A stretch of 64,000 nt of DNA, taken from assembly GCA_036383735.1 (NCBI GenBank), contig DASVNS010000240.1:8520-72519 (forward strand). The letters run 5' to 3'. A model generated the notes under the pieces. The model did no database searches, had not been told where the DNA came from, and saw only the letters and a list, made by a program, of their open reading frames with translations. The position numbers were made by a program, and so were the translations under genes. Shown here one piece after another: positions 7,270-63,813 of the stretch (within the stretch, counting starts at the first letter, position 1; each line of letters begins with the position of its first letter). Source of the DNA: Phenylobacterium sp. (GTDB taxonomy: Bacteria; Pseudomonadota; Alphaproteobacteria; Caulobacterales; Caulobacteraceae).

Positions 7270-7300
7270 AGCCTACGGCCTCAAGCCGCTAGAGGATCAA
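7270..7300 (-). promoter_or_regulatory. Third CadR/PbrR-like promoter/operator, driving the ligase
   Basis: TTGATC-CTCTAGCGGCTTGAGGCCG(19)-TAGGCT, near-identical to 2004-2034. Confidence 0.8.
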
Positions 7301-7490
7301 GCCGCCTGTCGCGCGCGCGTCACAACACGGCCAACGACCGTGGCGAGGAGCCCGGGCCTCCGACGCGGCCGGATCGATCCGCGCCTGCCCAGGGTATAGC
7401 GCCTCAACAAAAAAAGCTGCAGATGTTCCTTGCTATAAGTTATTGAAATCACTCGCTAATTTCCGATAAGATACATTAGACGCGTCACGC

Positions 7491-56759: not shown

Positions 56760-57827
56760 CTACCGGCTGCGACCTCGGCCCTTGTCAGGCCCGGGTCGGT
56801 CGGGCGTCGTCTCCGGCCCCTTGCGCGCCCTTTGCCGCTCAACCACCATCTGACGAGCCAGCGCCACCTTGCGGCTCACCGGCGGCGGCATGGATTTGAC
56901 GAACGCCTGCACGTCCTTCGCCAGCGCCTGGTCGCGCGGATCGCCCGAGGCCGCGAGCACCTTGGCGGCCGCCTGATAGGTCGCCCGCACCTCCGACTGC
57001 CGCCGACGCATCTGCTCGTCCCAGGGCCGAGGCTTCGCCCCGCCCCGCGCTAGCGCCTCGGCCTCCCGCCGCGCCTCCCGCAGGACGCGCGGCTCGTTCT
57101 GTCCGGTCCGCTCGAACCGCTCCCGCGCCTTCCGGACGGCCGTCCGCTCCGGCTTCTGGGTGATGCCGCGCACGCGACGCGGCGTCGCCTCGGCCTGGAT
57201 GCCCCGCCCCCGCAGCTCCCGGGCGAAGCGCTCGCGCCAGTCGGCCAGGTCCGCCTTGCGAGGGTTTAGCCGCTCGCCGTTCACCCCCAGCGCCCGCACG
57301 CTCAGATGGATGTGGGGCTGCTCGCCCTTGGCGTCCTGGTGAAAGGCGAACACATAAGGAAAGGTGTCGCCGAACTCCGCCCGGGCGAAGGCGCGGACCG
57401 CGTCCTTCATGCGGTCAGGGTCGGTCCCGACGGGCATGCTGAGCACGATGGACACCGACATGTTGCTGTTCGCGCGCCGGCGGCTATCCCCCTCCCCCAC
57501 CTCGCTCCAATCGTCAGCCAGCTCGCGCACGGCGCCGCGGCCATGGATCAGAGCTCCATCCGATTGCTCCAGGTCCAGCTCGCCCTTCCGCGAGATGTAT
57601 TCCAGATGCGCGGCCAGGTGCTCCCCGTCCTTCGTCCGGCCGGTGATCTTCACCATCACCTCGGGAGCTTTCTGGACCACGCGCGCGAGCCGCGCCCTGG
57701 CCTCCCCTCCCCGGCCGCCGCCCTTCGAGGGCGCGGCGATCACCGGCTCCTTGGGGACGATCTTCCGCCCGCCAGCCGGCGGCCGCCAAAGATTGTCGAA
57801 CCCGCGCACGGAGCGGAAGTCGCTCAC
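56760..57827 (-). CDS. virD2: VirD2-like MOBP relaxase
   Basis: PEVMVKITG, HLEYISRKG, IVLSMP, FAFHQD...PHIHL; GTGA coupling to mobC. Confidence 0.92.
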   Translation of the reverse strand: MSDFRSVRGFDNLWRPPAGGRKIVPKEPVIAAPSKGGGRGGEARARLARVVQKAPEVMVKITGRTKDGEHLAAHLEYISRKGELDLEQSDGALIHGRGAVRELADDWSEVGEGDSRRRANSNMSVSIVLSMPVGTDPDRMKDAVRAFARAEFGDTFPYVFAFHQDAKGEQPHIHLSVRALGVNGERLNPRKADLADWRERFARELRGRGIQAEATPRRVRGITQKPERTAVRKARERFERTGQNEPRVLREARREAEALARGGAKPRPWDEQMRRRQSEVRATYQAAAKVLAASGDPRDQALAKDVQAFVKSMPPPVSRKVALARQMVVERQRARKGPETTPDRPGPDKGRGRSR

Positions 57828-58336
57828 GCCTCGTCCTTCCAGTAGTCGAGGTTGCCGCGGAAGGCACCCTTCAGGCCGCGCACGTGGGCGCGGATCTCTT
57901 CGCGGAACGCCTCGAGCTGGGCGATCTCGGCGGAAAGTACGGTCCCTGGCATGACCGCCGTGTTCAGGGCGCGGGTGATCTGGTTGAGGTTCACCCCGAT
58001 CCGCCGCAGCTCCTCCTGCACGGCGTAGACGGCCAGTTCCTCGCGCCGGCCGAACTTCGGCCGGCCGTGCAGGCGTCGCCGTAGGACCGCGAGCGCCCAC
58101 TCGGTCCGCATCAACCCGTCGGCATCGGACGCCTTGTCGAGCGCCGCCTGGTCCTCGTCCTTCAGCCGGATCGTGAGCTTCGTCGACTGGCCTCGGGCCG
58201 CCGTCGGCGGCCTGGGCGCCTCCTGCCCTACAGCCTCAGCCACCAGCTCGCGAAGCCGCTTCGACCGGCCGCCGGAGGCGATCGCGTCGAATTTCGCGGC
58301 CAGCGCATCGGGGAGCTGGAAGGCGAATATGGCCAT
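57824..58336 (-). CDS. mobC: MobC relaxosome accessory protein
   Basis: RHH-like N-terminus; LRRIGVNLNQITRALN. Confidence 0.9.
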   Translation of the reverse strand: MAIFAFQLPDALAAKFDAIASGGRSKRLRELVAEAVGQEAPRPPTAARGQSTKLTIRLKDEDQAALDKASDADGLMRTEWALAVLRRRLHGRPKFGRREELAVYAVQEELRRIGVNLNQITRALNTAVMPGTVLSAEIAQLEAFREEIRAHVRGLKGAFRGNLDYWKDEA

Positions 58337-58600
58337 GAGCGCAGCGTAGTTTATAAAAATGCCGGCGCAAAGCCTATCCTGCCCTCACACCCCTAAAGAC
58401 TCCCCCCACACCAACACACCATCGCACGAGTCGCGCCGAGAGTCTGGCTTGGAGGGCACGTCGTTAAGCTTGGATTCTCTCCCCTGAGCGACCATAGGTT
58501 GCGAACTCCTCGCAAGTGCCCATGTTGAACAAGCGTCGCAGCAGCAGGGACCATGAGCTCGAAGCAAAGAACAGGCAGGGATAGGCTAAGGGGCGTCGCC
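58337..58600 (+). other. oriT with IncP-type nic site
   Basis: CCTATCCTGC at 58373-58382 matches the RP4-type nic, directly upstream of mobC. Confidence 0.8.
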
Positions 58601-61863: not shown

Positions 61864-62229
61864 TCAGTCCTCCTCGCTGGGATTCTGCTCGGGACGGTCC
61901 AGCGACTTCAGCTCGTGACCGGGCATCGCGATGACCACCTTGGAGAAGAACCGGTCCACGCCCTCGTTATCGGTATAGCGGTCGTGGCGGATCTCGCCCT
62001 GGACGAACACCTTGGCGCCCTTTGCCAGGCCCTTCGAGGCCAGCCAGTTGACCGTCGCCTGGTTCCAGATCTCCACCTGGTGCCAGGTCGGGTAGTCCTT
62101 CCGCTCGCCGTTCTTCTTCGTGTAGCGGCTGGTGCAGACCCGCAGGGTGGCGACCTTCTTGCCGCCTTGGGTGCTGCGGATCTCCGGCTCTGCGCCCGTG
62201 AAACCGATCAGTTGGACTTGGTTCAGCAT
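61864..62229 (-). CDS. ssb: Single-stranded DNA-binding protein (short tail)
   Basis: MLNQVQLIG, TWHQVEIW, KGAKVFVQG. Confidence 0.93.
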   Translation of the reverse strand: MLNQVQLIGFTGAEPEIRSTQGGKKVATLRVCTSRYTKKNGERKDYPTWHQVEIWNQATVNWLASKGLAKGAKVFVQGEIRHDRYTDNEGVDRFFSKVVIAMPGHELKSLDRPEQNPSEED

Positions 62230-62280
62230 CGTCTTTCTCCGTCTTCCGCCCAGAGAGGCCCGGGCGGCTCGCGGTCCTTG

Positions 62281-62456
62281 CCGCGATCACGCGACCGGTC
62301 AGGTCGGGGCAAAGGGAGGGGATGAAGCCCGGGGCGGCTGGAAACCGGTCTGCAGCGGCGCAGCGCGAAGACCGGAGGGTCCGGCCGGCCCGCCTCGCCC
62401 GCGAGGTTGGCTTCAACATCGAGCGACCCGGCCTAGGTTCGTGGGATTGATCGCGG
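62281..62456 (+). repeat. Long hairpin element, copy 1 (ssDNA-promoter/ssi candidate)
   Basis: CCGCGATCA...TGATCGCGG outer stem; homologous to 63509-63689. Confidence 0.75.
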
Positions 62457-63258
62457 GGGACCGTCCGCCGCCCCTGCGCGCCGCTACGGAAGACGGTCGC
62501 CGATGCGCCCTGGCCGACGCTCCGGTCACGGGACTCAGCACGTCCGCATCCGCCGGCCGAGCTCCCGGCCCCACGGTCGAAGCCTGCTTTCCACTCCACA
62601 CGCCGAGGGGAGGGGCGACACCCGCCACGCCTGACACGCCGTAAGCATCTGGGACCACGCGAGAAGGCGATGCGCAGACCGATCACCTCTCGGACAGCGC
62701 CACGTTTGAACCGGGCTTGGCATAGCGCCTCATCCCGCACGCTGACCAGGCGCTGGCCGACGATCGCCAGGGATCACGCGATCCTCCCGCGCCACGATCG
62801 CACCGGGGACCGGGCCGCGGCCGGCATCGGCCGGCGGTGAACAGGCCGACGCCCTCCACGCCGTCCGGATGGGGCTCAAGCCGGATAGAGGCGCGAATGC
62901 GCCTTGGGCGCCATACCCACCTTATCGAAGTGGCAGTGGAAGCGCGGTACGCGAGGCCTACACCTGCCGGCCAACGACCACCCGTCGGCGCCTAGATGTG
63001 CGGTGTTCGGGTCGAGGAGGGACAAGAGCCCCGCTGGGGCCAATGCTGGCTGCAACAGGCGAACCAATGCGGCCAATTCCGTCGACCGCGACTGGGCCGC
63101 TCGAAGGAACTCACCTGCGGCGATGATTAGGCCGGCCCTCCGAGGCCCCCGGCGGCACGGATCGCCAACCCGACGACCGCACCCTGGCCGCCGCGCCCAC
63201 TTGGGCACGGCGGCCGCAATTGGTCGGACGGTCCCCCACCAGGACCGCCCCTGGGGTG

Positions 63259-63474
63259 TCAATGCACCGTTCGACGCGCGGCGATCAGCTGGGCGAAATG
63301 GGCAATGGCTGCGGTGTCCAGGCTGAAGGGAACCCGGGTCTTTTCCTCATGCTGGTCCAGCTCCTCGAGCACGGCCCAGGCGTCCCAGCACTCGGCGACC
63401 ACATACCAGTCGCCCACGTCGTAGAATTGGTGGGCGTGTTCCAGAACCGCCTGCGCCATCGTCATGCTCGCCAT
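63259..63474 (-). CDS. 71-aa acidic hypothetical leading-region protein
   Basis: GGAG SD; AVLEHAHQFY..GDWYVVAECWD. Confidence 0.7.
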   Translation of the reverse strand: MASMTMAQAVLEHAHQFYDVGDWYVVAECWDAWAVLEELDQHEEKTRVPFSLDTAAIAHFAQLIAARRTVH

Positions 63475-63508
63475 CTGAGGTCTCCGTTGCTCGACCGGCG
63501 GGCTCATC

Positions 63509-63689
63509 CCGCGATCATGCGACCGGTCGGGCCGGGGAGAGGGGCGGGCTCACGGTCGGCGGCGCTGGAAACCGGCCTGCACAGAGCGCAGCGGCGGAAG
63601 GCCGGAGGGTCCTGCGCTGACGCCTCGCCGCCGGCGAGGTCGCCTTGAGCCCGAACGGCCCCGGCTCAGGTTCGCCTTGAGAGATCGCG
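63509..63689 (+). repeat. Long hairpin element, copy 2
   Basis: CGCGATC...GATCGCG outer stem; shares ordered blocks with copy 1. Confidence 0.75.
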
Positions 63690-63813
63690 TTCAGCCCGCC
63701 CGGCCAGACCCGGAGAACTTGGCCAGCCGCCGAGGCCCCAGCGGCCGCCACCCGCCCTCGCGGCTTGCCGACAAAGAAGATGCGGCGACCTTGCGGCCGC
63801 CGCACCGGCGGGA

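Follow-up and report, generated by a model that had tools for sequence, protein, structure and literature searches.

The window, that is, the whole 64,000-nucleotide stretch of Phenylobacterium DNA that we analysed, contains near its right end two similar long hairpins, each lying just ahead of a gene of what appears to be the leading region of a conjugative element. The initial annotation proposed that they are promoters that work on the transferred single strand, with a structured non-coding RNA as the alternative. This raises the question of what these hairpins are, how widespread they are and whether their sequence fits such a role. Among the published cases that we found, single-strand promoters have so far been tested only in E. 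coli plasmids (F and IncI1), and the sequences of these appear unrelated to those described here. The hairpins are a candidate answer of alphaproteobacterial plasmids to the same problem, in hosts that are genetically tractable and harmless.

The two hairpins of the window

From left to right, the right end of the window encodes a coupling protein, a MOBP/VirD2-like relaxase, mobC, a MerR-type gene, a 98-aa ORF, parB, parA, a 90-aa ORF and ssb, followed by hairpin 1, a 71-aa ORF and hairpin 2 (Table 1). The two elements had been described as homologous on account of a series of shared, ordered blocks, and we found all of these blocks at the expected places on the + strand. The core motif, GCTGGAAACCGGYCTGCA, occurred exactly twice in the window when up to 3 mismatches were allowed (0.18 occurrences expected). 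The folding z-scores, calculated with DNA parameters, were -3.1 for hairpin 1 and -2.2 for hairpin 2. The genes that they precede start on the minus strand at 62229 (ssb) and 63474 (71-aa gene), 52 and 35 positions away as had been claimed, and the distal arms carry the promoter-like patterns that had been noticed, TTCAAC-N16-TAGGTT at 62412-62439 and TTGAGC-N16-CAGGTT at 63645-63672.

The structure itself had to be amended on three points. Each element does form a long fold, but not the plain stem that had been drawn: the fold of the family, described below, branches into a side hairpin at a three-way junction, a feature absent from the fold calculated from hairpin 1 alone. The core had been correctly placed, but not its boundaries, since the stem runs about 8 bp further out, to roughly 62271-62464 and 63497-63700. 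Finally, the heptamers TGAAGCC and GGGCTCA, quoted as an example of compensatory change, do not correspond as quoted (they overlap in three columns only), although true compensatory swaps between the two copies are present there.

Table 1. Positions, in window numbering, of the two hairpins and of the genes and signals that surround them
Feature	Position	Strand	Remarks
MOBP/VirD2-like relaxase	about 56760-57950	-	
mobC	57824-58336	-	
Candidate MOBP nick motif TATCCTGC of oriT	58375-58382	+	Just upstream of mobC; MOBP consensus
ssb, 121 aa	61864-62229	-	Pfam SSB, E 4e-21
Hairpin 1	62271-62464	+	Core 62281-62456 plus basal extension; upstream of ssb; predicted ssDNA promoter
Hairpin 1, head (almost invariant)	62340-62382	+	GGAAACCGG..CTGCA / GAAG..CCGGAGGGTCC
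Hairpin 1, apical GCGCAGC mini-hairpin	62358-62364	+	
Hairpin 1, side hairpin CCTCGC/GCGAGG and two unpaired pyrimidines	62393-62408	+	Three-way junction, 3 bp ahead of the -35 TT
Hairpin 1, predicted -35 box TTCAAC	62412-62417	+	Preceding C and TT almost invariant in the family; third base covaries freely
Hairpin 1, predicted -10 box TAGGTT	62434-62439	+	A 62435 unpaired; T 62439 opposite G
Gene for conserved acidic 71-aa protein	63259-63474	-	232 homologues; those named are Caulobacteraceae hypothetical proteins
Hairpin 2	63497-63700	+	Core 63509-63690 plus basal extension; upstream of 71-aa gene
Hairpin 2, GCGCAGC mini-hairpin	63586-63592	+	
Hairpin 2, side hairpin	63623-63639	+	
Hairpin 2, predicted -35 box TTGAGC	63645-63650	+	
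Hairpin 2, predicted -10 box CAGGTT	63667-63672	+	

The 71-aa protein had no match in Pfam, NCBIfam or Atlas, and is a candidate establishment or anti-defence factor. Another small hairpin was observed in the ssb leader (window 62235-62262, minus strand), just ahead of the Shine-Dalgarno sequence; by eye, it appears to covary across copies.

A family of hairpins in Caulobacteraceae elements

Conjugative plasmids and elements of Caulobacteraceae contain a conserved and covarying family of DNA elements, about 180-200 bases long, to which hairpins 1 and 2 belong. In all, we collected 151 full-length copies that differ from one another, almost all of them from Caulobacteraceae elements, and reduced them to 59 representatives at a redundancy cut-off of 88% identity; matches shorter than 140 nt and one degenerate copy (L093 7495) were dropped ahead of the counts.

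Only 7 of 72,556 plasmid records matched the family, all 7 from Caulobacteraceae, and the five full-length copies among them each lie before ssb, 8-11 kb from a MobQ relaxase. BLAST of Caulobacteraceae genomes gave a match in 86 of 401, many of these matches being short and due to chance and only 2 candidates having been scored per genome; 54 genomes had a match at E <1e-6, and both tallies take in one unpublished genome (G393), which no other result depends on. A pattern scan of 185,579 species genomes yielded 116 loci, of which 110 were confirmed by profile, one of them only partially. By record title, almost all family loci belong to Caulobacterales or unranked Proteobacteria. Transfer or mis-binning may explain further full-length copies in assemblies that bear the titles Azospirillum, Zavarzinia, Beijerinckiaceae and Opitutales. 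With the covariance model, matches were found in 8 of 30 Caulobacteraceae genomes (one only partial) and in none of 120 genomes from other families of the order or 150 further genomes across the class. The pattern scan of viral contigs gave no family match.

One copy (L082 12994-13172) lies on a 3.5-Mb contig, so that the family is present in chromosomes as well, probably as part of an integrated element. The Phenylobacterium genome has a third copy, on contig C158, and no others. Because no overlap connects contigs C240 and C158 and the same genome has a second element, of the MOBQ type, this third copy is not assignable to the plasmid of the window.

We found no earlier description of the element in the largely open-access literature searched, on Frpo and leading regions, on ssDNA promoters in Caulobacter or on ssb hairpins in Caulobacter and Phenylobacterium. 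The word 'Alphaproteobacteria' is absent from the main text of PMC11541004 and PMC13478746. The family is real and apparently undescribed.

Fold, covariation and strand

The fold is strongly reflected in the alignment. When no structure was supplied, the 11 top MI-APC column pairs all fell on nested helices of the stem. For 60 named pairs in the 59 representatives, 88.9% of the cells were paired, as compared to 33-43% in slid controls, and a two-sided change was seen in 37 of the 60, so that the covariation among homologues named in the initial annotation as a check was indeed found. Covarying cells amounted to 404, against 151 in shuffles. This shuffle statistic ignores kinship, and switches were therefore also counted on the tree: 12 of 14 chosen pairs had switched independently 5-13 times, and the other two 1 and 2 times.

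Starting from the base, the fold comprises a 7-bp helix, an A/T-rich bulge on the distal arm, a short helix, an internal loop (one A versus four bases), an 8-9 bp helix, a template-side bulge, a 16-pair helix and the three-way junction, past which come a 13-pair arm, a purine-rich loop and the almost invariant head. At the junction, a side hairpin of 6 bp is accompanied by two pyrimidines that stay unpaired (T in 59/59, then C in 53 or T in 6). Three-way junctions with two unpaired bases are stable structures. A further basal helix differs by class, i.e. between copies that precede ssb and copies that precede the 71-aa gene: a complementary run of at least 5 with the copy's own flank was present in 51/59 copies, the corresponding figure across classes being 31%.

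The + strand folded better than its complement in 55/59 representatives, with DNA and RNA parameters alike. In agreement with this strand, mismatches on the + strand were more often G.T than A.C (166 vs 78, one invariant pair, later dropped from the consensus, having been removed from this count) and more often G.A than T.C (172 vs 27). The apex read GCGNAGC or GCGNNAGC in 43 of the 56 non-inverted representatives, with the triloops GCA in 32 and GAA in 9, while neither apex was found on the other strand (0/59). According to PMC13037366, mini-hairpins of the GCGNAGC type are far less stable as RNA than as DNA and bind SSB poorly, and this type is known at ssDNA priming sites and at N4 promoter sites. 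The invariant head and the junction probably form a binding or SSB-resistant scaffold.

Gene setting and predicted direction of transfer

We looked at the gene downstream of 96 copies in 69 sequences. It was ssb in 58 and the 71-aa gene in 34, i.e. 92 of the 96 could be labelled, and the leaders of the 4 others matched by eye. The genes start 47-58 nt (56 ssb genes) or 31-43 nt (34 71-aa genes) from the hairpin, whose strand is the template. Four divergent copies that were found by the covariance model alone also lie before ssb.

The direction of transfer was deduced from the nick motif. Eight octamers of the MOBP nick type are present in the window, and only TATCCTGC, at 58375-58382, adjoins mobC. 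It fits the MOBP nick consensus, (C/T)ATCCTG(C/T), and has CCTATCCTGCCC in common with the RP4 oligonucleotide described in PMC3772185. Since this octamer is on the + strand, the latter is predicted to be the transferred strand, running toward the hairpins. It also serves as template for ssb and the 71-aa gene, both of which are encoded on the minus strand. At window 58575-58589, the minus strand reads GCCTATCCCTGCC, which differs little from the nick region, having an additional C, and which faces the candidate oriT about 200 nt off.

The same arrangement was found elsewhere in the family. A relaxase gene was present in the locus of 53 copies; in 52 of these it is situated toward the 5' end of the hairpin strand, 3.7-14 kb away, and points away. 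In MOBQ oriTs, the strand that carries TAAnTGCGC is presumably the nicked one. With this consensus (PMC3832669), a nick motif was present on the hairpin strand in 17/28 MOBQ loci, as it was in 4/4 MOBP loci (21/32 in all), and on the opposite strand in 0/32; no nick motif was retrieved by the search in 11/28 MOBQ loci. Nick-motif strand and relaxase side thus agree with the proposed placement of the hairpins in the leading region.

The leading module is joined to a MOBP relaxase in 4 loci, including that of the window, and to a MOBQ relaxase in 28 others (L001-L005 among them), which suggests module exchange between transfer systems. The family goes with both types of relaxase, is a marker of leading regions and points to the 71-aa protein. 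At L055 14672, the hairpin of the 71-aa gene is duplicated together with its leader, and the duplicate heads a 487-aa ORF instead; the hairpin-leader cassette may be reused for driving other genes. Leading regions also contain genes annotated as GcrA-family regulators (L001 18278-18784, L004 16833-17372 and L005 16776-17315). GcrA is a sigma70 cofactor in Caulobacter (PMC4647560), and plasmids that carry such genes may retune host transcription upon entry.

Promoter-like bases on the distal arm

The distal arm reads C-T-T at the predicted -35 box, with C in 59/59, T in 57/59 and T in 59/59. Sigma32-type promoters of alphaproteobacteria likewise begin with CTT. Sixteen bases past the hexamer, position -11 is A in 50/59 and position -7 is T in 53/59. 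The distal arm retains these bases while the positions opposite vary. The first -35 T is kept while its partner is A in 35, G in 19 and C in 5 representatives; on the tree it changed 2 times and its partner 14 times, the values for -7T and its partner being 4 and 9. The -7T stands opposite G in 45/59 and is Watson-Crick paired in only 3, and the -11A is unpaired. The -11A and the -7T are the two bases that sigma70 flips out. Retention of the -7T is notable because this base is missing from over 60% of Caulobacter sigma70 promoters, as reported in PMC8407463.

A relaxed box pattern, TT-N4-N15..18-NAnnnT, which was set after the alignment had been inspected, matched the distal arm in 46/59 representatives, as compared to 7/59 anywhere on the coding strand and 0/59 opposite the proximal arm. 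When TA was required, the numbers were 25/59 for the distal arm and 0/59 for the coding strand. Against a promoter, two box positions are kept in only about half of the 58 labelled representatives or fewer: T stands at -12 in 31 (23/37 ssb and 8/21 71-aa copies), and G is the third base of the -35 box in 23 (7/37 ssb and 16/21 71-aa copies), although in E. coli the sigma70 motif TTG is conserved (PMC8407463). The most conserved part of the family is the head, 40-80 nt away from the boxes, and conservation at that distance is not accounted for by a plain promoter.

The covariation, the identity of folding strand, template strand and nick-motif strand, the position in the leading region and the occurrence of promoter-like bases on the distal arm only all argue for a promoter that works on ssDNA. 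On this sequence evidence, we consider it likely that the family is an alphaproteobacterial single-strand promoter, which would fold on the transferred strand and drive both ssb and the 71-aa gene up to the synthesis of the second strand. The boxes are imperfect, however, and the few copies that are inverted, described below, do not fit a pure transferred-strand model. Among 11 public sequencing runs, one is recorded as RNA, and it had just three short pieces; the four runs examined consisted of contigs, three of them probably from DNA, and have no bearing on expression.

In the window, nicking near 58380 would send the + strand into the recipient 5' end first, and hairpins 1 and 2 would arrive about 3.9 and 5.1 kb into transfer. 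The distal arm would then fold back and present a non-template -35 (C-TT) and -10 (Y-A-n-n-n-T) to the primary sigma factor of the host, the unpaired -11A and the G-opposed -7T imitating a partly opened promoter. RNA polymerase would start near 62284-62288 and copy the proximal arm into the leader and the gene. Because the coding strand lacks such boxes, formation of the duplex would switch the promoter off. The transcript may also prime second-strand synthesis, as has been reported for Frpo.

Alternative explanations

Alternatively, the main role of the hairpins could be that of an initiation or timing signal on the single strand that enters the cell, i.e. a primase or primosome site, or a roadblock that slows down the second strand, the promoter-like bases being secondary. 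The strand and DNA-fold evidence applies to this explanation as it does to a single-strand promoter. The head has an invariant CTG inside CTGCA, and the G4 origin has ...CCCTACTGCAAAGCC beside its annotated primer start. CTG plays a role in recognition by DnaG, but in the consensus stem of the family it is paired. Mini-hairpins are found at the G4 and ssiA priming sites (PMC13037366), ssp2 of F stalls second-strand synthesis (10.64898/2026.01.09.698686) and a toprim-domain gene is present in related leading regions. Priming needs no set distance from a start codon, however, yet all labelled copies lie 31-58 nt from one, with leaders that are class-specific, and it would be left unexplained why TT, A and T are conserved, at the spacing of a promoter, on one arm only. 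We consider such a signal improbable as the main function, while noting that it is compatible with a single-strand promoter and that the two are not exclusive.

The structured non-coding RNA of the initial annotation, which would be either an antisense, 6S-like promoter mimic made from the + strand or a cis-regulatory ssb leader, is disfavoured and in our opinion very unlikely. With its length of about 180 nt and its rod shape, the family does recall 6S RNA, and covariation is blind to the difference between RNA and DNA, RNA parameters also preferring the + strand in 55/59. The folding strand is antisense to the genes, though, which excludes a 5' leader, and its orientation follows the nick strand. 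A search of Rfam 15, which includes 6S, gave no family at gathering score and three weak matches only (E 0.7-6). A T-run was found in the 3' flank of only 1/59 copies, and the identity of this flank was 0.56, as compared to 0.72-0.75. The GNA triloop at the apex and the tolerance of G.A mismatches also fit DNA.

Lastly, we regard it as highly improbable that the hairpins act as duplex DNA, in the form of repeated control regions with promoter and operator (perhaps extruded as a cruciform) whose repression is lifted in the recipient, as in the case of Reg576 of p576 or CUP of pKM101: repeated conserved regions under repressors are known before establishment genes (PMC6294495; PMC8708921), the invariant head could be an operator and the inverted copies would need no extra assumptions, but an operator has no need for 60 covarying pairs across 180 nt, the coding strand has no TA-n-n-n-T box at promoter spacing (0/59), and a cruciform has no strand preference whereas the mismatch types favour one strand.

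Comparison with known systems

The likely assignment as a single-strand promoter calls for a comparison with the known ones, which form three classes in F and IncI1, with starts determined by 5' RACE in pESBL (as described in PMC12672017, PMC9849209, PMC11541004 and PMC13478746). Judged by sequence comparison, the hairpin family is not Frpo by descent, and its geometry resembles that of the GC-rich classes 2 and 3.

Class 3 (ssp3) precedes the DUF1281-methyltransferase operon of pESBL, ColIb-P9 and F (PMC12672017), the sites of F and ColIb-P9 having been assigned in this analysis from their position. It resembles the family in being a GC-rich fold-back on the transferred strand, with CTT at -35, a GCCCGG-type stem before the -10 and extra template-side spacer bases. 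The fold of F ssp3 also has a side hairpin and two unpaired bases, 3 bp ahead of the TT. Of the non-members in 93 kb, F ssp3 matched the covariance model best (22 bits, E 0.002, or E 0.0004 when F was searched by itself), far below the members, which scored 78-172 bits. The near-identical ssp3 copy of ColIb-P9 was top-ranked at 13.7 bits, which was not significant (E 0.12), and its fold did not display the junction. No profile-HMM homology of ssp3 to the family was detected in F 50-70 kb. Differences are that ssp3 has another head, a TT-to-TA distance that is one base shorter, and canonical TTG and TA.

Class 2 (ssp2), found before klcA/ardA in F and IncI1 (PMC12672017, PMC13478746), shares with the family a similar motif (CCCGGCTAAGAT vs CCCGGCCTAGGTT), a CCCGG stem, a paired -12T next to an unpaired -11A, and an 8-9 bp stem followed by a template-side spacer bulge. 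Its upper part is longer and different, and sequence homology of the family to the klcA/ardA hairpins is absent, the core geometry alone being alike: the covariance model had no ssp2 match in F or ColIb-P9, and the local-alignment z of the window hairpins was 0.3 and 1.0.

Class 1 (Frpo1 and Frpo2 of F, ssi1-3 of ColIb-P9) likewise consists of long leading-region hairpins upstream of ssb, on the template strand and in several copies (PMC9849209, PMC11541004). Its upper stem is A/T-rich, whereas the Caulobacteraceae family has a GC-rich head with a junction, and the host range differs as well. The search for homology to Frpo/ssi gave a best nhmmer E of 0.37 in F 50-70 kb and local-alignment z values of -1.5 to 1.5 for the window hairpins, and there was no covariance-model match to the class 1 sites of ColIb-P9. 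With respect to hosts, induction of the pESBL leading genes was reported to be much diminished in the alphaproteobacterial recipient Sinorhizobium (PMC12672017).

Outside these classes, EGeRS1, EGeRS2 and CUP are also repeated, conserved non-coding elements before establishment operons (PMC8708921, PMC6294495). EGeRS1 differs by its size (400-600 bp) and because the transferred strand is there the non-template strand, while it is the predicted template in the Caulobacteraceae family (PMC8708921). EGeRS2 and CUP differ in that they act via repressors on duplex DNA (PMC8708921, PMC6294495).

Inverted copies

Copies that are inverted with respect to the other leading genes accounted for 7 of 70 classifiable copies and 9 of 151 overall. 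Each of the seven precedes a second ssb that is convergent with a methyltransferase/helicase gene, and the template strand is in this case the non-transferred strand. The second ssb genes are intact, with a dN/dS of about 0.33 (value for the inverted set alone, without a comparison set). Eight of the nine copies group in a single clade (99/97) and the ninth shares 93% identity with the normal copy of its own plasmid, so that one or two events account for them. The stem is kept in these hairpins, and the A and T of the -10 are mostly kept; the GCGNAGC apex is missing in 8/9. The C158 copy of the Phenylobacterium genome belongs to this set.

The inverted copies may be passengers, or they may be active on the retained strand; in F donors, according to PMC9849209, this strand is single-stranded for a short time. 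A literature search for a donor-side case yielded only the F imaging paper and the p576 paper. The inverted copies pose the question of transcription from single strands in the donor. It appears rather unlikely, all elements taken together, that we are dealing with a new class of single-strand promoter, made for alphaproteobacterial RNA polymerase, in which a three-way DNA junction is combined with an invariant head that binds protein, and which serves one ssb in the recipient, from the transferred strand, and an inverted, intact second ssb in the donor, from the retained strand during transfer.

Natural variation in the family marks the bases and joints that carry weight, namely the TT, the -11A, the -7T, the junction and the head, and this makes base-by-base testing feasible.

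A second, unrelated family of conserved hairpins, of about 115 nt, was observed on the same strand past the end of the window (L007 about 7290-7405, corresponding to about 64770-64885 in window numbering). No clear -10 box was visible in it by eye. It lies directly before a DUF2493 gene in 32/32 cases, has the GCGNAGC apex in 29/32 and displays visible compensatory changes, and is possibly another single-strand signal.
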